This document shows positions 4,109-32,000 of a stretch of DNA of 32,000 bases, piece by piece. Below the pieces are notes generated by a model. The model saw only the letters and a program-made list of their open reading frames with translations, was not told the DNA's origin and did not search any database. The first letter of the stretch is position 1, and every line of letters starts with the position of its first letter. A program made the position numbers and the translations under genes. Source of the stretch: Raphidiopsis brookii D9 (GTDB lineage: Bacteria > Cyanobacteriota > Cyanobacteriia > Cyanobacteriales > Nostocaceae); contig ACYB01000035.1 in NCBI GenBank assembly GCA_000175855.1, forward strand, positions 120,001-152,000, written 5' to 3'.

Positions 4109-5239
4109 ATGAAATACCGTCGTTTTGGTAAAACTAATTTAGAATTATCCGTGTTTTCTCTGGGGACAATGCGGTGTATAACTGATGTGGAAATTTTCCA
4201 TCACACTATAGAAAAGGCTTTAGAATGGGGAATTAATCATTTGGAGACTGCTAGGGGTTACGGTAAAAGTGAGGAGTATTTAGGTACAGCTATTAAAACA
4301 GGTTTATCAGTACCCCGAAGTCGATTTCATATTACAACTAAAATTCCTCCTTGTGCAGATAATAGCACTATGGAGCGACATATTAATGAGTCTTTAGAGA
4401 AACTAAATGTTGATTATTTAGATGCTTTGGGTATTCATGGCTTGAATACAGAGCAGCATTGGCAATGGGTAAAGTCTAATAACGGCTGTATGAAAGCTAT
4501 ACAGAAAGCAATAGAAGATGGTAGAATTAAACATGTTGGTTTTTCTACCCATGGTAGTTTAAAGATTATTTTGGATGCCATTAATACAGATTATTTTGAG
4601 TTTGTGAATTTGCATTATTATTATTTTTTCCAGCGCAATAATTTAGCGGTTACAGCAGCAATAGAAAAAGATATGGGTGTATTTATTATTTCTCCTGCAG
4701 ATAAGGGTGGGAGACTGTATACACCATCGGATAAATTAAAGGAACTGTGTCAACCGTTCACTCCTCTGGAATTGAATTATCGGTTTTTGTTGAGTGATTC
4801 GCGAATTACTACCCTAAGTGTAGGTGCTGCAAATCCAGAGGAATTAAGCTTACCCTTGGCAGTTTGTGATAATATTAGTAATTTAACACCAGCAGAAGTC
4901 AAAGTTTTTAAAAACTTAGAAAATTACCAAACCCAAATTTTGGGAACTGATAAATGTAGTCAGTGTTATGATTGTTTACCCTGTCCAGAAAATATCAACA
5001 TCCCTGAGATATTAAGGTTACGAAATTTAACAGTTGCCTACAATATGATTGATTATGGCAAATATCGTTATGGAATGTTGGAAAATGCTGGTCATTGGTT
5101 TCTTGGTATGAGGGGAAACCGATGCACAGAGTGTGGTGATTGCTTACCCAAATGTCCTGAGAATTTGGATATTCCTCATTTGTTGCAAAATGCCCATGAA
5201 ACATTAAATGGCAAAACCAGCAGAAGATTATGGGATTAA
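4109..5239 (+). CDS. aldo/keto reductase with C-terminal 4Fe-4S-binding region
   Basis: 376-aa ORF. The N-terminal AKR fold has GINHLETARGYGKSEEYLG. The C-terminus carries two Cys clusters, CSQCYDCLPCP and CTECGDCLPKCP (CxxCxxCxxxCP type). Confidence 0.8.
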   Translation: MKYRRFGKTNLELSVFSLGTMRCITDVEIFHHTIEKALEWGINHLETARGYGKSEEYLGTAIKTGLSVPRSRFHITTKIPPCADNSTMERHINESLEKLNVDYLDALGIHGLNTEQHWQWVKSNNGCMKAIQKAIEDGRIKHVGFSTHGSLKIILDAINTDYFEFVNLHYYYFFQRNNLAVTAAIEKDMGVFIISPADKGGRLYTPSDKLKELCQPFTPLELNYRFLLSDSRITTLSVGAANPEELSLPLAVCDNISNLTPAEVKVFKNLENYQTQILGTDKCSQCYDCLPCPENINIPEILRLRNLTVAYNMIDYGKYRYGMLENAGHWFLGMRGNRCTECGDCLPKCPENLDIPHLLQNAHETLNGKTSRRLWD

Positions 5240-24498: not shown

Positions 24499-25674
24499 AT
24501 GGATTATCATCAGACCAAACCATTTTATACGATTAACTCCCTGATGCCATTTTCTATTATGGATCGCTACTTGGCGATGCAGTTATTACCCATCTTTCTA
24601 TTTGGTGTTGGTGCTTTTACTTCCGTAGTCTTAGCCATTGACAGTTTATTTGAGTTGTTGCGCAAAGTAGTAGAATCCGGACTACCAATTAACATTGCAT
24701 TAAAAGTGTTTGTGCTGAAATTGCCCTATGTCATGGTTTATTCCTTTCCCATGTCTACTTTACTAGCAACTTTAATGACTTATAGCAAGTTATCCAGTGA
24801 CAGTGAACTGATAGCTTTAAGAGGATGTGGTGTGAGTGTTTATCGAATGGTACTAACAGCAGTTTTGCTAAGTGGTTTAGTTACTGGAATGACCTATGTA
24901 TTTAATGAATATATTTCCCCCGCAGCCAATTATGAAGCCAGTATTACTCTAGAACAGGCATTAAAATCAGATCAACCATCATTTAAACAAGAGAATATTT
25001 ATTATCCAGAATATCGAGAAGAAAAAACAAAAGATGGGGGTACTAGTAGACTATTAGCTCGCTTATTTTATGCTGATGAATTTGACGGCAAAAAAATGAA
25101 AGGACTAACAATTATTGATCGTTCTAAAGCGGGAGTAAATCAAATTGTTGTATCTGAATCTGCCCAATGGAATGCATATAAACAAGTTTGGGACTTTTAT
25201 AATGGTACTATTTATTTAGTCGCTCCTGATCGTTCCTATCGAAATATTTTGCGTTTTGAACATCAGCAATTAAAATTACCCAGCACACCTTTAATTGTGG
25301 CTAAAAATAGTCGAGACTATGAAGAAATGAATATTGCCCAATCATTACAACAACTAGAAATTGAAAAGTTAGCAGGTAATCCCCAAAGAATTAAAAAACT
25401 GGAGGTCAGAATTCAACAAAAAATAGCCTTTCCCTTTATTTGTATAATTTTTGGTTTAGTTGGGTCAGCTATGGGAACTATCCCCCAACGCACTGGTAGG
25501 GGAAGGAGTTTTGGTGTCAGCATTATAGTCATTTTTATTTATTATTTATTACTATCCGTTTGTGGAGCTTTAGCACAAGCAGAAATTTTATCTCCCTTTG
25601 TAGGTGCATGGTTACCCAATCTGTGTGGGTTAGGGATGGGAATTGTAATTCTTATGCAATTTTCCCAAAAGTAG
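24499..25674 (+). CDS. LptF/LptG (YjgP/YjgQ) family LPS export permease
   Basis: 391-aa ORF. It has three N-terminal TM helices, a large periplasmic beta-jellyroll insert and three C-terminal TM helices. MDRYLAMQLLPIFLFGVGAFTSV is typical of the family. Confidence 0.8.
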   Translation: MDYHQTKPFYTINSLMPFSIMDRYLAMQLLPIFLFGVGAFTSVVLAIDSLFELLRKVVESGLPINIALKVFVLKLPYVMVYSFPMSTLLATLMTYSKLSSDSELIALRGCGVSVYRMVLTAVLLSGLVTGMTYVFNEYISPAANYEASITLEQALKSDQPSFKQENIYYPEYREEKTKDGGTSRLLARLFYADEFDGKKMKGLTIIDRSKAGVNQIVVSESAQWNAYKQVWDFYNGTIYLVAPDRSYRNILRFEHQQLKLPSTPLIVAKNSRDYEEMNIAQSLQQLEIEKLAGNPQRIKKLEVRIQQKIAFPFICIIFGLVGSAMGTIPQRTGRGRSFGVSIIVIFIYYLLLSVCGALAQAEILSPFVGAWLPNLCGLGMGIVILMQFSQK

Positions 25675-25693
25675 ATAAAGTAGATGGGAATGT

Positions 25694-26395
25694 TTAACGA
25701 TTGTGGTTTGAGCACACAACCCGAAAACCTAAGTTGTTCTTGTCAGAGAGGTGACGATTACGGGAACCACAACCACAGTGTTGAGCAGAATCACACCAAG
25801 AACCACCACGTAACACATGGCCGCGAAAAACACCAAAAATTCCCTTCTCAACCCATGGACTACTATCCTTTGGTATATCTTGGTAGTGATCATGCCAATG
25901 ATCTAAACACCATTCCCAAACGTTCCCGTGCATATCGTATAATCCAAATGGATTGGGAGGGAAACTTCCCACCTCCGTAGTTTGTTTGCGATATTGTCCT
26001 TGAGGTGCTAAACTTTGTTTATGGTCTCCATGATAGTTGACCAAATCTGTTGTAATATTGTCACCAAAATGAAATTCTGTGCTGGTTCCCCCCCTGCAAG
26101 CATATTCCCACTGTGCTTCACTGGGTAAGGTGTATATCCTTCCAGTAATCTGACTGAGTTTCTCGCAGAAATCAACTGCTTGATTCCACTTTACCCTTTC
26201 TACTGGACGTTTGTCACCCTTGAAATAAGAAGGGTTATCTCCAGTAACAGCTTGATATTGTTCTTGTGTTATCTCGTATTTTCCCATGAAAAAACTGGGC
26301 ACTGTGACTAAATGTTCAGCACTCTCCTCCGGGTTTCCCCGATTTTCAGCTGAGTTGATGGTAAATGTCCCTCCTGGAATTTCTACCATTTCTAG
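25694..26395 (-). other. FGE-sulfatase (formylglycine-generating enzyme/SUMF1-like) domain (aa ~1047-1279)
   Basis: LEMVEIPGGTFTINS...FFMGKYEITQEQYQAV...NPSYFKG...PVERVKWNQAVDFCEKLS...YTLPSEAQWEYACRGGT...NPFGLYDMHGNVWEWCLD...VLRGGSWCDSAQHCGCGSRNRH...NLGFRVV matches the family motifs. Confidence 0.85.
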
Positions 26396-29300
26396 GGTGA
26401 TATCATCACCTAAATCCTCCACAAAGTATATGACACTAGCATCAGTTTTGATTATCTCTCCGAAATTTTTCTTACTAACTACTTCAAAGCTCAGGATTTT
26501 TAAGTTAAGGTAATTACGAAGTTTAATGGTCAGTGTTAATCCTCCCCTCTCCCAAAACTTGAGGTTTTCCCCTAGGTCTAAACTACCAAGATTTAAAGCT
26601 CGGTTAAAATCCTCTATTGCTCCCTGTCTATCTCCCAATTCGTAGCGAATGTTCCCTCTCTTGTTATACGCTTCAACATAATTTGAGTTAATGTTTAAAG
26701 CCTGATTGAAATCCTCTATTGCTCCCTGGTGATCTCCCAGCTCATAGCAAACAATTGCTCGATTGTTGTATGCTTCTGCATAATAAGGATTGATTTGGAT
26801 AGCTTGACTAAAATCATCTTTAGCCCATTCCCTATCTCCTAAATCTGTGTATGCAACCCCCCGATTGTTGTATGCTTGAGCGTAATTGGGGTTAATGTTT
26901 AAAGCCTGATTAAAATCTTCTATGGCTTTTTGCCTATTCCCCAATTCATAGCGTGCGTATCCCCTGTTAATATATGATTCCGTATAATTATAGGCAATTA
27001 TAATAGCTTGACTAAAATCTTCTATAGCCAATTGCCTCTCGCCCAAACAAATACGCACAATTCCCCTATTATTATAGGCTTGAGCATAGTTAGAGTTAAT
27101 ATTAACAGCGTGATTGAAATCCTCCATTGCTCCCTGATTATCCCTCAACTCATAGCGAACAATTCCCCTATTGTTATAAGCTTGAGCATAGTTGGGATTA
27201 ATATTAAGAGCATGATTGAAATCGTTAATTGCTCCCTGGTAATCTCCCAGCTCATAGCGAACAATTCCCCTATTGTTGTAAGCATCAGCATAACTAGCGT
27301 CAATATCCAGAGCATGATGGAAATCATTTATCGCTCCTTGACTATCTCCTAACTTATAAAGGGCAGTTCCTCTGCCAACATAGGTATCAGCACAATTAGG
27401 CTTAATTTCTATAGATCGGGTGTAATCATCTATTGCGCTCTGGTAGTTTCCTAAATCATAGTAAGCAATTCCCCGATTATAGTAGGCATCAGCATAATCA
27501 GGACTAATATTCAGGGCTTGAGTATAATCATCTATTGCCCTCTGATAATCTGCTATATCACTGCGAACAACTCCTCGATTGTTGTATATGTAAGCATAAT
27601 CAGGATTAAGATTCAGGGCCTGGGTATAATCATCTATTGCTCCCTGGTTGTCTCCCAACTCACTGCGGGTCAGTCCCCGTGCAATGTAGGTTTCAGGATC
27701 ATCAGGGTTAATATTGAGTGCTTGAGTGTAATTATTTACGGCTCCTGGCTTATCTCCCAGTTCACTACAAACCATTCCCCAAGCGTAGTAGGCTTGATCA
27801 TAATTAGGATTAATATTGAGTGCTTGAGTATAATCATCTACCGCCCCTTGTTTATCTCCTAAGCTAGTGCGAGCAATTCCTCGGTTGTAGTAGGCTTGAG
27901 CATAGTTAGGATTAATATTGAGTGCTTGAGTATAATCATCTATTGCTCCTTGTTTATCTCCTAGGTTAAAACGAGCAATTCCCCGACCGTAGTAGGCCTG
28001 GGCATAGTTAGGATTAATATTGAGTGCTTGAGTATAATCATCTATTGCTCCCTGGTTGTCTTCCAAGTTAATACGGGTAGTTCCCCAGTTGTGATAAACT
28101 TCCGCATAGTTGGAATCAACTCTTAAAGCTTGAATGTAATCATCTATTGCTCCTTGATAATTTCCCAAGTAAGTACGAATAGCTCCCCGATTATTATATG
28201 CTTGGGCATAATTGGGATCAATTTTGATAGCTTGGGTGTAATCATCCATGGCCGCCTTTTGAGAACCCAGGTCACTACGAATTATGCCCCGGTTATAATA
28301 GGCACTAGCAAATTTAGGATTAAGATTCAAGCTGTGGGTATAGTCGTCTATTGCTCCCTGCTTATCTCCTAATTGACTGCGAGCAACACCTCGATTGTGG
28401 TATGCTTGGGCATAATTAGGATTAATTCTAATTGTCTGGTTAAAATCATTGATAGCTTCTTGATAGTTTCTTAGGTCACAGTAAACAAGTCCTCTAGCAG
28501 CATAACCATCAGCAAAGTGGGGATTTATCGTGATAACCTGATTAAAATCATCTATTGCTCCCTGCTTATCCCCTAAATCATATCGAGCAAGTCCCCGTTT
28601 AGTATAAGCATCAAAAAAAGCAGAATTAAGGTGAAGGGTTTGGTTAAAATCCTCTATTGCTTTTTGAAGATACCCCATGTCCCTATGGGCGACTCCGCGA
28701 CTATAAGCAGCTAAAGCAAGATTAGGATTAATATCAAGAGCTTGGTTAAAATCATCTATTGCTCCTTGCCCATCTCCCAAATTGGTCCGGGCAATTCCCC
28801 GTTCCATATATGGCTGAGGCAGGTTAGAATTAATACTTATGGACTGGGTAAAATCATTTATTGCCCCCCGATTATCTCCTAAGTCGCTGCGGGCAATTCC
28901 TCGGCAAAGGTAGGTATGGGCATTCTCTTCCAGATCAATTTCTAAAACTGCCTGATTGCCTAGGGAAATAATAGTGTCAGTCTGTCTTGGTGATAGGGTG
29001 CTAGAGATAACCTGTAGTTGTGCCAAATGAAGTGAAAATGTGGCTAATGCCTGTTCAAATTCAGTTTCTACATGTTGCAATGTTTCCAATTCTGTCCTAT
29101 AATCAACTGGATCGGGAGGAGATATAAAAGGATTGGGGGTAAAAGTGGTGTTTCCACCAAATGTGCGATGAAACCAGATAGCTAACTCCCTAGCTATCTT
29201 TAATATGGTCAAAGCCTGACTAGGATCACTAGTATGCTCATAGGTAGCTCTATCACTAACAACCCTGACTTGATGGAATAGGAGGGCTACCTTTTGTGGT

Positions 29301-29533
29301 AGGATTCCTTTTAGCTCTAATTGGCGCAATAGATCTGTTTGGTTTTCAACAGTGGAATGGAAGTTTCCCGTTCTAGCAGCAATTAATTGAGTTAAGAGTT
29401 GGCCAAAGTAGCACAATTTAACTAAACAAGTTTTGGGTTGATTCCACACATAGCCCTCAGCTAAAACACTAAGACGTAATAACTGTAAATCATGGGATTG
29501 CAAAAATTGGAAATTAACAGATGCTGTTATCAT
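25694..29533 (-). CDS. 1279-aa multidomain protein: DUF4145-like N-terminal domain, coiled linker, 23 TPR repeats and a C-terminal FGE-sulfatase (SUMF1-like) domain
   Basis: Intact ORF. Its ATG overlaps the upstream helicase stop (ATGA). See the domain sub-features below. Confidence 0.85.
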   Translation of the reverse strand: MITASVNFQFLQSHDLQLLRLSVLAEGYVWNQPKTCLVKLCYFGQLLTQLIAARTGNFHSTVENQTDLLRQLELKGILPQKVALLFHQVRVVSDRATYEHTSDPSQALTILKIARELAIWFHRTFGGNTTFTPNPFISPPDPVDYRTELETLQHVETEFEQALATFSLHLAQLQVISSTLSPRQTDTIISLGNQAVLEIDLEENAHTYLCRGIARSDLGDNRGAINDFTQSISINSNLPQPYMERGIARTNLGDGQGAIDDFNQALDINPNLALAAYSRGVAHRDMGYLQKAIEDFNQTLHLNSAFFDAYTKRGLARYDLGDKQGAIDDFNQVITINPHFADGYAARGLVYCDLRNYQEAINDFNQTIRINPNYAQAYHNRGVARSQLGDKQGAIDDYTHSLNLNPKFASAYYNRGIIRSDLGSQKAAMDDYTQAIKIDPNYAQAYNNRGAIRTYLGNYQGAIDDYIQALRVDSNYAEVYHNWGTTRINLEDNQGAIDDYTQALNINPNYAQAYYGRGIARFNLGDKQGAIDDYTQALNINPNYAQAYYNRGIARTSLGDKQGAVDDYTQALNINPNYDQAYYAWGMVCSELGDKPGAVNNYTQALNINPDDPETYIARGLTRSELGDNQGAIDDYTQALNLNPDYAYIYNNRGVVRSDIADYQRAIDDYTQALNISPDYADAYYNRGIAYYDLGNYQSAIDDYTRSIEIKPNCADTYVGRGTALYKLGDSQGAINDFHHALDIDASYADAYNNRGIVRYELGDYQGAINDFNHALNINPNYAQAYNNRGIVRYELRDNQGAMEDFNHAVNINSNYAQAYNNRGIVRICLGERQLAIEDFSQAIIIAYNYTESYINRGYARYELGNRQKAIEDFNQALNINPNYAQAYNNRGVAYTDLGDREWAKDDFSQAIQINPYYAEAYNNRAIVCYELGDHQGAIEDFNQALNINSNYVEAYNKRGNIRYELGDRQGAIEDFNRALNLGSLDLGENLKFWERGGLTLTIKLRNYLNLKILSFEVVSKKNFGEIIKTDASVIYFVEDLGDDITLEMVEIPGGTFTINSAENRGNPEESAEHLVTVPSFFMGKYEITQEQYQAVTGDNPSYFKGDKRPVERVKWNQAVDFCEKLSQITGRIYTLPSEAQWEYACRGGTSTEFHFGDNITTDLVNYHGDHKQSLAPQGQYRKQTTEVGSFPPNPFGLYDMHGNVWEWCLDHWHDHYQDIPKDSSPWVEKGIFGVFRGHVLRGGSWCDSAQHCGCGSRNRHLSDKNNLGFRVVCSNHNR
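26576..28921 (-). repeat. array of 23 contiguous, in-phase 34-codon (102-bp) TPR units
   Basis: Every unit fits A.AY.NRG..R..LGD.QGAI.D(F/Y).QAL.INPNY with no spacer residues (aa 205-986). A 37-bp identical core, ttaggattaatattgagtgcttgagtataatcatcta, recurs at 27804, 27906 and 28008, exactly 102 bp apart. Confidence 0.9.
29159..29533 (-). other. DUF4145-like domain (aa 1-125 of the 1279-aa protein)
   Basis: The pattern FQFL..HDLQLLRLSVLAEGYVWNQPKTCLVKLCYFGQLLTQLIAARTG...NQTDLLRQLELKGILPQKVALLFHQVRVVSDRATYEH...ALTILKIARELAIWFHRTF follows the helical DUF4145 layout known from N-termini of type I restriction HsdR subunits. This is recognition by eye; no HMM was run. Confidence 0.55.
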
Positions 29534-32000
29534 ACCTCAATAATCTGGTATATTTTTAGGATAAATAAATATAAGTTTACCGGAGCTTGTTTAATTTTTT
29601 GTATTAACAAATCCACTTGTTGTCCCTTATTGCGGAACCATTCTGTTGACCAAATTCGATGAATAGTCCAACCCAGTCCTTCGAGAACTTTTTGTCTAAT
29701 ACGATCCCTATCTCGTGCTGTATGGGAACTGTGATAGGATGCACCATCGCACTCAATTCCCAATAGGAATTCTCCTGGAGAATCTTTGTGCGCAATAGCC
29801 AAATCAATTCGATAACCTGAACATCCGACTTGGGTACGGATTATATATTCCTGCAATGAGGAATGTCGGCTTATTGTTTCATATACATCTTCCTCAAATG
29901 GCGAATCAAATTTAAGTGTGTTGGTATAAGAATCACCCTGTAAACGCTCACCGCCAGTAGCAACATATTGTAAATAATCGCGCAGCATTCTGATACCTTC
30001 ACTTTCGGTACCAGCTAGGTCAATGTCACCTGCACCTATAGAAGATATTAAAACAATTTTGACTTTAGCCCGTGTAATAGCGACATTCAGCCTCCTTTCT
30101 CCACCTTTTTTGTTAAGCGGTCCAAAATTCAAAGTTAGTTTACCTTCACGATCGCGCCCATATCCAACACTAAGCAGAATTAGATCCCGCTCATCACCTT
30201 GTACATTTTCTAAAGCTTTGAGAAAAAACCGATCAGAGTCATCCCGACAAAAAGCTTCCAACTCGGGATTCTTTCTTACTAATATATCTATCTGTTCCTG
30301 AATGGCATTCTGTTGAGCTTGACTAAATGCGATAATCCCAAGGGACTGGTGAGAATTTTGTTCAAGATTTTTTCTAACATGTGCCAAGGTCAAATCAGCA
30401 ACAGTTTTTGCCTCAATTTGGTTATCTCTACGCCCACCGCGATCATAAATACCATCGGAGACGTACTCAAACCATACCCCCAACTCCTGATTTTGAATGG
30501 GGTTTGGAAATGTAACCAATTTTGAGTCATAAAAATGACGATTTGAAAAAGCAATTAATCTTTCATCTCGACTACGATAGTGCCACTTAAGTGTATATCC
30601 AAACATAAAGTTTGAACATTCATCTAAGACACTTTCATAATTTGCATCATCTTCATCATCTATATCTTCCTCATTCTCAACTCTGGAGAAAAAAGATGTT
30701 GGTGGAAGTTGCTTTCTATCGCCAATAACAATTACTTGATCGCAACGGATGATTGAAGAAACAACATCTTCAGTTCGCAGTTGTGAAGCTTCATCAAAAA
30801 TGAGAACGTCAAAGTGAATTGCACTAGGGTCAATGTACTTACTCACTGACAAAGGACTCATCATCCAGCAAGGCTTGAGGGTTGAAACCAGTTGTTTGAT
30901 ACCCTTTTCTTTGTCATTAAGAAGTTTACGAATCGGTAAGTGTTTCCGCTTTTTGGTTTCTTCTTTTCTCAATGTTCTCAACTCGGAACTACCATCTGTA
31001 GTTTCTTGAAACCTTTGCCACCTTTGTGCATGAATTTGTTTTAATCGTCGTTTAGCAATATCTAACTGACTATAGTCAAGTTCAGCAAAGTCTTTAATTT
31101 GCCGTTCATGCACATCAATTTTAAAGTTCTTCAACTCAGGTTTTTGAGCAAGAATGGAGTCAAGACAAGTTTGATAAATCAGTTTTTCCAGAGCTGTAAA
31201 CCAATAATTAGAATCGATCTTATTCCTACGCAAAGCATCCAAAAATTTCCTACATCCTAAATCTTCCAACTTTTGACAAGTTTCCTTGTAGGTCAGCCAC
31301 CCTTGCAGATCAGATAAACCAGAATGGGCAATATCCAAAAATTCTTTCAGTTTAGTAAGGGGGATTTTGTCGAAAGATAATCCGTCATCAGTGATATCAT
31401 TTTCCTGAAAATGCGACGATAAGAAATGAATTCCTTTCTCAATTTCCACAAAGTTTGATTCAAGCTTTTTAAGCAACTCCTGAACTTTACGTTTTCCTGA
31501 TGGAGAAACTAAAATGTTTTGGATATTTTCAACACAATCATCTAAAAAAGAATATTGCCGTAAATCAATTAACCAGCTTAAAGCCTCCTCAATAGTCCGT
31601 ACATCTGATTGTCTGGCAATTTCCGGATCGAACAGAGAACCAAAAGCTACACGAGCAGGGTAGTCACTTTGACTTAGCTTTATTCGAATATTTCTAACTT
31701 GCACTGCATGTGATAAATCTCGTTGTAATTCTAGATGAGAAACTGGGTGTTTTATAATTAATTTTTGTAAGTGCTGGCGATCTCTCCAATAGTTACGATT
31801 AAAAATACGAATCAGCCAGAAGCGGCTATAATTCTGATATCTTTGAGATAACTGAGGCAAATCTAGATCTGGAGAAAATAAGTCGGGAGAATATCTTTGT
31901 TTCAAGTGAGATTCAAAACTCTCAAGTACTTGAACATCATCTTTCAATTTTTTAATGGCATCTTCGGCATGGGAAATATTTATTTTAGACCAATTTTCTG
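29530..32000 (-). CDS. SF1 (Upf1/DNA2-like, AAA_11/AAA_12) helicase with C-terminal DUF559/Vsr-like endonuclease domain; 5' end outside the window
   Basis: The frame is open to the window edge (the codons upstream of the track's TTG at 31947 read ...KIGLKINISHAEDAIKKL). Helicase motifs: II FDEASQ (30784-30795 region), III VIVIGDRKQLPPT, WHYRSRDERLIAFSN, V GDERDLILLSVGYGRD, VI LNVAITRAKVKIVLISS. Walker A must lie beyond 32000. A long coiled insertion precedes motif II, as in DUF4011-type helicases. Confidence 0.85.
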   Translation of the reverse strand, partial: ENWSKINISHAEDAIKKLKDDVQVLESFESHLKQRYSPDLFSPDLDLPQLSQRYQNYSRFWLIRIFNRNYWRDRQHLQKLIIKHPVSHLELQRDLSHAVQVRNIRIKLSQSDYPARVAFGSLFDPEIARQSDVRTIEEALSWLIDLRQYSFLDDCVENIQNILVSPSGKRKVQELLKKLESNFVEIEKGIHFLSSHFQENDITDDGLSFDKIPLTKLKEFLDIAHSGLSDLQGWLTYKETCQKLEDLGCRKFLDALRRNKIDSNYWFTALEKLIYQTCLDSILAQKPELKNFKIDVHERQIKDFAELDYSQLDIAKRRLKQIHAQRWQRFQETTDGSSELRTLRKEETKKRKHLPIRKLLNDKEKGIKQLVSTLKPCWMMSPLSVSKYIDPSAIHFDVLIFDEASQLRTEDVVSSIIRCDQVIVIGDRKQLPPTSFFSRVENEEDIDDEDDANYESVLDECSNFMFGYTLKWHYRSRDERLIAFSNRHFYDSKLVTFPNPIQNQELGVWFEYVSDGIYDRGGRRDNQIEAKTVADLTLAHVRKNLEQNSHQSLGIIAFSQAQQNAIQEQIDILVRKNPELEAFCRDDSDRFFLKALENVQGDERDLILLSVGYGRDREGKLTLNFGPLNKKGGERRLNVAITRAKVKIVLISSIGAGDIDLAGTESEGIRMLRDYLQYVATGGERLQGDSYTNTLKFDSPFEEDVYETISRHSSLQEYIIRTQVGCSGYRIDLAIAHKDSPGEFLLGIECDGASYHSSHTARDRDRIRQKVLEGLGWTIHRIWSTEWFRNKGQQVDLLIQKIKQAPVNLYLFILKIYQIIEV
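29623..29901 (-). other. DUF559/Vsr-like (restriction-endonuclease fold) domain at the helicase C-terminus
   Basis: FEEDVYETI...GYRIDLAIAHKDSPGEFLLGIECDGASYHSSHTARDRDRIRQKVLEGLGWTIHRIWSTEW is the typical layout of the endonuclease module appended to DUF4011/Hhe-type helicases. Confidence 0.7.

Follow-up and report, generated by a model that had tools for sequence, protein, structure and literature searches.

What might a protein do that joins, in one polypeptide, a helical head of the kind found at the N-terminus of restriction enzymes, a long array of tetratricopeptide repeats (TPRs) and a domain with the fold of the formylglycine-generating enzyme (FGE)? The gene that raises this question lies on the minus strand of a 32,000-nucleotide stretch of the Raphidiopsis brookii D9 genome (contig ACYB01000035.1, positions 120,001 to 152,000; referred to as the window), where positions 25694–29533 form a single uninterrupted open reading frame of 1279 codons with an ATG start. 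The presented analysis suggests, with a probability of roughly 0.45, that its product is a cytoplasmic, non-catalytic binding and scaffold protein in three parts, built by domain shuffling. The new element is the HEPN/DUF4145 head on a known cyanobacterial type of TPR and C-type-lectin (CLec) protein; it is probably not a new ribonuclease (RNase), and the parts are all known. The gene and its parts are as follows.

25694–29533, minus strand: whole gene, 1279 aa, with a probable pseudo-HEPN head, a helical linker, 23 TPRs and an FGE/C-type-lectin module of TvpA type (open reading frame list, Pfam).
29129–29533, minus strand: head, aa 1–135, a helical domain of DUF4145/HEPN type and of the HsdR N-terminal kind (NCBIfam PRK11448, relatives, AlphaFold2).
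29234–29266, minus strand: degenerate catalytic motif, aa 90–100, RVVSDRATYEH (column counts over 157 relatives; identical in the orthologues L040 and L062).
28922–29128, minus strand: proline-rich stretch (FISPPDP) and helical linker, aa 136–204 (alignment with the HsdR relatives P0002–P0007; AlphaFold2 helices).
26576–28921, minus strand: 23 tandem 34-residue TPRs, aa 205–986 (register, Pfam, 102-nt DNA repeat family D1).
26393–26575, minus strand: aa 987–1047, about 25 low-confidence spacer residues, then the conserved beta-hairpin N-terminal extension of the FGE module (AlphaFold2 strands; 113 homologues).
25694–26392, minus strand: FGE-sulfatase/C-type-lectin-fold domain, aa 1048–1279, including the stop codon (PF03781, PDB sequence matches, Foldseek).
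25724–25798, minus strand: aa 1246–1270, WCDSAQHCGCGSRNRHLSDKNNLGF, the counterpart of the variable region that diversity-generating retroelements (DGRs) rewrite in the family, static here (comparison with paralogues and orthologues).

A preliminary description of the gene, read from the letters of the window, had proposed a helical N-terminal domain at aa 1–125, a coiled linker, exactly 23 back-to-back TPRs at aa 205–986 and a C-terminal FGE-sulfatase domain, and each of these parts was recovered. The AlphaFold2 model of aa 1–203 (102 aligned sequences) is all-helical, with a mean predicted local distance difference test (pLDDT) score of 95: the first 125 residues contain six helices, a proline-rich stretch without structure follows, and two long helices (145–177 and 182–196) stand in the place of the linker. 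The segment between residues 205 and 986 splits into 34-residue units in perfect register, which gives 23 TPRs; the Pfam profile TPR_1 matched it with an E-value of 1.4e-163 and 22 separately scored stretches, and the DNA of this part shows a 102-nt period over 26565–28902. The Pfam family PF03781 (FGE-sulfatase) covers aa 1048–1273 (E 7e-49). The beta-rich linker described in front of this domain does exist, but it is not a spacer. In the model of aa 987–1279 (pLDDT 81), about 20 disordered residues are followed by beta strands at aa 1012–1059 that lead into the FGE fold, and the segment is conserved across 113 homologues with the consensus EVVTVNxxGxIIxRxxxxARYFxEDLGNGVxLEMxxIPGG; it therefore belongs to the C-terminal module. 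Pfam found no HSDR_N nuclease, ResIII/Helicase_C or EcoEI_R_C family in the 1279 residues, and the Pfam and NCBIfam scans found no NACHT, NB-ARC or AAA NTPase and no vWA domain, which sets the protein apart from STAND/NLR-like and vWA-MoxR conflict systems with FGS or TPR sensors.

The affiliation of the head can be determined from its relatives. The Pfam profile of DUF4145 (PF13643), compared directly with the head, scored 12.5 bits (E 0.15), under the cut-off of 23.1 bits. Although this score is sub-threshold, the earlier reading of the head as DUF4145-like holds through the HsdR N-terminal profile, as positions 3–163 of NCBIfam PRK11448 (type I restriction endonuclease) matched residues 5–161 with an E-value of 9e-32. 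The same region is also matched by the PADLOC profiles REase_I and PDC-M16A. A scan of 1.84 billion cluster representatives yielded 1374 relatives of the head (best E 2e-38), 510 of them at E < 1e-10, and PF13643 was matched by 36 of the 38 long relatives (best 1.7e-11). The homology of the head to DUF4145 is therefore secure by transitivity, through strong relatives that mostly match PF13643 and through the N-terminus of PRK11448. In cyanobacterial genomes the closest relatives are typical HsdR genes with products of about 1130 aa, to which aa 1–203 are 39–43% identical. This match includes the linker, which indicates a joint inheritance of the head and the helical linker. The window protein has the helical core, the FxPPxxP stretch and the subsequent helical region in common with the HsdR N-terminal module; in contrast to HsdR, it lacks the HSDR_N, ResIII/helicase and EcoEI_R_C domains, and the catalytic-type residues of HsdR heads have been lost. 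The best superposition of the head model on a PDB entry was obtained with the HEPN protein AF_0298 (2hsb; probability 0.96, target-normalised template modelling score 0.61, root-mean-square deviation (rmsd) 3.7 Å, at an E-value of 0.9), and PDB sequence searches found no solved structure related to the head in sequence. The DUF4145 family was placed in the HEPN superfamily in 2013, when its fusions to restriction nuclease and helicase modules were already noted (PMC3710099).

The state of the catalytic motif is the main reason for regarding the head as non-catalytic. Among 157 relatives, R90 is conserved in 149, G93 in 151, N94 in 150, A96 in 152 and H98 in 150, so that the family motif is R90-x2-G-N-x-A-x-H98, whereas the window protein reads R90-V-V-S93-D94-R-A96-T-Y98-E-H100. 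The preliminary description had taken the R-x4-H of RATYEH (aa 95–100) for the conserved histidine-containing motif of the family. This identification does not hold, because R95 and H100 stand on variable columns (R in 31 and H in 21 of the 157 relatives) and the conserved pair is R90/H98. Seventeen of the 23 columns that are conserved in at least 90% of the relatives are kept, including R90 and all the hydrophobic ones. The six that are lost are all polar or glycine (D32Q, R41C, E45Q, G93S, N94D and H98Y); the histidine is lacking in only about five of the 157 relatives, and the combined loss of the six residues occurs in none of them. The string SDRATYEH is identical in the orthologues L040 and L062, and L062 still has R41 and E45, which suggests a stepwise decay of the catalytic pocket. 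A preserved fold combined with a dismantled pocket is the usual signature of a pseudo-enzyme. The loss of polar and glycine motif columns from an otherwise intact hydrophobic core therefore makes the head probably a pseudo-HEPN domain, which may well have lost its RNase activity.

The head family is associated with many different partners. Among the 38 long relatives, the HsdR core is represented by HSDR_N in 15 and by ResIII in 13; other partners are leucine-rich repeats, Ser/Thr kinases, RecJ-like DHHA1/OB, UvrD helicase, bacterial dynamin, FGE and TPR. This wide range characterises the family as a promiscuous N-terminal module. The combination of such a head with an FGE domain, which the preliminary description presented as not seen before, has precedents with intact motifs: P0127 (511 aa, metagenome) unites the same head family with FGE, and P0040 (complete, 508 aa, metagenome) unites it with TPRs in the reverse domain order. 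Unlike the window protein, both carry an intact R-GN-A-H motif and neither contains all three parts. Among the proteins examined, the three-part combination with a degenerate head occurs in this lineage only. As a separate observation, seven proteins (P0012, P0030, P0034, P0044, P0053, P0123 and P0143) carry an intact-motif head together with leucine-rich repeats, RecJ-like DHHA1/OB, Ser/Thr kinases, bacterial dynamin or UvrD, and one of the kinase fusions also has a phosphonate-binding domain. The partner range of the HsdR-type DUF4145 head thus exceeds that listed in the 2013 HEPN survey.

The C-terminal module is, in contrast to the head, a common component. More than 7000 proteins match it at E < 1e-30, mostly from Nostocales and at 55–60% identity, where it stands alone or C-terminal to kinase or HEAT domains. 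Ligand-binding FGS/CLec modules, always at the C-terminus, have been described in cyanobacterial proteins (PMC7159879, PMC7517822, PMC10907252), and a beta N-terminal extension has been described for TvpA-like FGS domains (PMC7159879). These data agree with the earlier view that linker and FGE domain form a recurrent C-terminal cyanobacterial module (PMC7159879, PMC7517822). Among solved proteins, PvdO has the best sequence match (3.8e-31), followed by TvpA, a DGR variable protein of Treponema (1.5e-30); true FGEs rank behind both. The Foldseek comparison gave a similar picture: PvdO was matched at 1.8e-19 and TvpA (2y3c) at 2.6e-19, the latter with the lowest rmsd (2.3 Å over 293 columns), and the E-value of about 1e-15–1e-16 against human FGE indicates that the FGE fold is present. 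TvpA and PvdO (5hha) are therefore the top matches in both fold and sequence, at E-values of about 1e-19 and rmsd values of 2.3–3.4 Å. Both are proteins of FGE fold that are not known to have formylglycine-generating activity. Their settings are different, as TvpA is a DGR-diversified surface lipoprotein and PvdO a periplasmic pyoverdine-maturation protein, whereas the window protein is cytoplasmic, fused and static. The catalytic cysteine pair of FGE is also incomplete. In the HMMER alignment, human C341 aligns with C1253 and C336 with D1248, which adjoins C1247; the spacing is C-x5-C instead of the C-x4-C of human FGE (C336/C341), and the C336-equivalent column is hypervariable across the cyanobacterial family. 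At the place of the family sequence CRSA, aa 1247–1255 form a cysteine cluster, C-x5-C-x-C (WCDSAQHCGCG), which is kept in L040 and P0278 and reads CDSAKHCRSG in L062; it is possibly a metal or disulfide site.

Compared with the published cyanobacterial CLec/FGS proteins, the window protein has the same TvpA-like module with its beta extension, strictly C-terminal, grafted behind other domains including TPRs, and cytoplasmic. It differs in the absence of NTPase, vWA, kinase and peptidase domains, in its static variable region and in the change from CRSA to CGCG (PMC7159879, PMC7517822, PMC10907252). In term searches of Kaur et al. 2020, Vallota-Eastman et al. 2020 and Dore et al. 2024, a DUF4145 head goes unmentioned and the word HEPN turns up once at most, in the first of the three (PMC7159879, PMC7517822, PMC10907252). 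A further protein, P0284 (L063 214–1518, on an ENA contig of 1659 bp), has Trypsin_2, one TPR and a beta-extension/FGE module that is 95% identical to the one in the window. It hints at heads swapped on the same body, in a paralogue from a related strain, or at a chimeric assembly; the coverage of the metagenome contig is low (1.45).

Purifying selection has conserved the gene within Cylindrospermopsis/Raphidiopsis. The syntenic orthologue in Raphidiopsis sp. BLCC-F218 (L040) has 1291 aa and 93% amino acid identity, and that of C. raciborskii (L062, GCA_022496815.1) aligns collinearly along 3840 nt, with 87% of the nucleotides identical and two scaffold N-runs as the only breaks. The ratio of nonsynonymous to synonymous substitution rates (dN/dS) of the whole gene is 0.28 against L040 and 0.23 against L062; broken down by part, the respective values are 0.14 and 0.32 (head), 0.29 and 0.20 (TPRs) and 0.10 and 0.36 (FGE domain). 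Low values in every part indicate that the gene, the degenerate head included, is maintained by purifying selection. Among the 1.84 billion cluster representatives, none was more than 50% identical to the head apart from fragments of the same gene, and this version is therefore confined to a narrow lineage.

In the reading of a non-catalytic binding and scaffold protein, the head and the helical linker would have been taken from the DUF4145/HEPN module that caps type I HsdR, with the fold kept and the catalytic pocket lost. HEPN domains normally dimerise, and the head may on this ground serve as a dimerisation or docking domain rather than as an RNase. The 23-TPR solenoid would provide a long surface for protein–protein interactions, and the TvpA/PvdO-type module would be the standard ligand-binding cassette of Nostocales in a fixed, non-diversifying copy. 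The lectin-fold and TPR parts would then bind a ligand, and the output may be sequestration or recruitment. If this reading is right, the gene is a natural case of a restriction-enzyme HEPN head reused as a pseudo-enzyme on a sensor-like scaffold, and HEPN/DUF4145 becomes one more kind of head that has been attached to the cyanobacterial TPR/CLec cassette. It would also provide matched pairs for studying the function of the N-terminal HEPN domain of HsdR, with intact heads (P0127, P0040, HsdR) on one side and the degenerate head on the other. As the parts are known, the lineage is narrow and the basis is sequence and models, the result should be regarded as a lead and not as a discovery.

The position of the gene adds to this picture. 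In the window and in the loci L001 and L040, the interval between ndh/PALP and the TPR-FGE gene with lptFG is occupied by a PDC-S37/Hhe-like helicase-nuclease (L040 10001–14143). In L062 the same slot, with ndh/PALP on one side and lptFG-lptB on the other, contains the TPR-FGE gene and lacks the helicase; on the opposite strand, at L062 1985–3476, it holds a HEC-01A ATPase (E 1.6e-144) and a split DUF4276 gene (52 and 70 aa). Neither the helicase-nuclease nor the HEC-01 ATPase is conserved as a neighbour across the window, L040 and L062 loci. The TPR-FGE gene thus stays in place at the border of a slot with exchangeable candidate defence cargo and is not an obligate partner of the helicase. 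The HsdR ancestry of the head, together with this position at the edge of a variable defence slot, possibly links the protein to defence or its regulation. If this is correct, the ndh/PALP–lptFG interval of the bloom-forming, toxin-producing Cylindrospermopsis/Raphidiopsis would be a defence hotspot with exchangeable cargo.

The same location can be read in another way. In three lineages the gene has kept lptFG-lptB as its neighbour, with a variable content on the other side, all its parts are under purifying selection, and cyanobacterial CLec-grafted proteins have been interpreted in the literature as regulatory or signalling. The protein could therefore be a housekeeping or signalling scaffold outside defence, for example in the envelope or in lipopolysaccharide transport near lptFG; the head would then be no more than a helical domain for dimerisation, and the proximity of defence genes a coincidence. 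This explanation, although unlikely, survives better than the other alternatives. A housekeeping role is difficult to reconcile with the narrow lineage, in which the head has no relative above 50% identity but fragments, and with the ancestry of the head in restriction enzymes; both alternative neighbours are also defence candidates. Moreover, the gene is convergent and not co-oriented with lptFG. Concerning this convergence, a gap of 19 nt separates the genes in the window (25674–25694), and they overlap by 23 nt in L040 (18051–18073), where a frameshift in the TPR-FGE gene swaps the last residues (...RVVCSNHNR) for ...RVCAQTTIVKHPHLSTFGKIA.

On its other side the gene meets the helicase-nuclease.

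29530–32000, minus strand: upstream neighbour, the C-terminal approximately 820 aa of a DUF4011 superfamily 1 (SF1) helicase with an MTES_1575 nuclease, PDC-S37/Hhe/ProA-like (Pfam, NCBIfam, PADLOC).

This frame is open to base 32000 and runs off the window. Its full-length orthologue P0158 has 1380 aa and reaches 1385 bits with PADLOC PDC-S37; the NCBIfam scores for ProA (1158 bits) and Hhe (778 bits) are both under the curated cut-offs. The helicase stop overlaps the start of the TPR-FGE gene by 4 nt (ATGA) on the same strand, no promoter-like site lies between the two genes, and the two also lie side by side in L001, L040 and L041. Since the head also derives from a nuclease-helicase enzyme, HsdR, the protein could form a two-gene system with the helicase-nuclease, as an accessory or sensor subunit that is co-translated with it and directs or licenses the nuclease. 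Such a partnership is rather improbable. The overlap results from a strain-specific 1-nt indel, with a gap of 45–54 nt in its place in L001 and L040. Downstream of helicase homologues with 62–72% identity no such TPR-FGE gene was found in any of four other cyanobacterial loci, and the L062 gene stands without the helicase, so that the two are not obligate partners; PADLOC, too, files PDC-S37 under a single-gene (S) candidate code. The indel itself lies at the 3′ end of the helicase gene (window 29530–29620, minus strand; L001 3200–3330; L040 14143–14198) and distinguishes strains that share 98% identity. The window helicase ends in ...KIKQAPVNLYLFILKIYQIIEV and runs into the next gene, and the L001 helicase ends in ...KINKLR, 45 nt short of it; the 25-residue tail in the window is probably a frameshift product.

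The possibility of an active head must also be weighed. The preliminary description had raised, as speculation, a HEPN-like RNase motif. One part of this idea stands, because DUF4145 belongs to the HEPN superfamily and RAZR has a DUF4145 domain with proven RNase activity, for which R146 and H154 are required (PMC3710099, PMC13017515); the implied activity is unsupported, as G93, N94 and H98 of the family motif are replaced. In an active HEPN RNase effector, phage sensing by the lectin-fold and TPR parts would switch on RNA cleavage through R95-x4-H100, or through R90 together with H100, in a RAZR-like abortive infection. In its favour, the protein still has R90, RATYEH is formally compatible with Rx4-6H, purifying selection acts on the head, and a relative with an intact motif (P0127) is fused to FGE. 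The catalytic pair of RAZR (PD-T7-4), however, has the spacing R-x7-H, which is that of R90/H98 in the family and not that of R95/H100. The latter two residues occupy the variable columns described above, and H98, G93 and N94, each present in 150–151 of the 157 relatives, are replaced, as are D32, R41 and E45. H100, two residues further along the helix, would face another side, judging from the modelled helix boundaries (80–98 and 104–125). RAZR, a zinc finger joined to a DUF4145 HEPN RNase, is moreover small, active and switched on by ring assembly on phage proteins (PMC13017515), whereas the window protein has tyrosine for the histidine and the partners TPR and FGE instead of a zinc finger. 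An RNase effector is consequently an improbable explanation.

A further reading, to which only a small probability can be given, is that of an integrated-decoy guard. The inactive copy of the HsdR head and linker would mimic the part attacked by phage anti-restriction factors, and such a factor, or a phage ligand bound by the lectin fold, would be captured on the TPR scaffold and either sequestered or signalled to the defence cassette in the adjacent hotspot. If true, this would be a bacterial analogue of the integrated decoys of plant nucleotide-binding leucine-rich repeat (NLR) proteins, without an NTPase.

Hardly credible is the idea of a remote DGR target, a hypervariable receptor in which a template repeat at another genomic site supplies new sequence for the C-terminal stretch: cyanobacterial DGRs do use modules of this TvpA type, W1246–F1270 align with the family region that is hypervariable between paralogues and many codons there are NNT or NNC, as AAY templates would give, but the stretch is identical in L040 (at 93% amino acid identity overall) and P0278, L062 differs at only four of 29 residues with a dN/dS of 0.19, no higher than in the rest of the protein, the near-invariant CRSA of the family has become CGCG, and a search in which A was accepted in place of any other base found no template repeat but the stretch itself, and no reverse transcriptase, in the 32-kb window and the 24-kb L040 locus. 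Present-day diversification of aa 1246–1270 is thus unsupported, the stretch being static in orthologues and without template repeat or reverse transcriptase at the window and L040 loci, and it is possibly a fossil variable region.

Several minor observations concern the repeats. On the plus strand, long antisense open reading frames rich in I, S, L and N occur at 25684–25980, 27008–27352, 27518–27862 and 28130–28372; these are by-products of the codon composition of the TPR repeats and not genes. In L001, a Logan contig, the orthologue is called as a 319-aa open reading frame by a frameshift in the third TPR (4282–4525), downstream of which the frame resumes; the probable cause is faulty assembly of the repeats. 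The repeats also interrupt assemblies, and NCBI accordingly names fragments of the gene "SUMF1/EgtB/PvdO family nonheme iron enzyme, partial".

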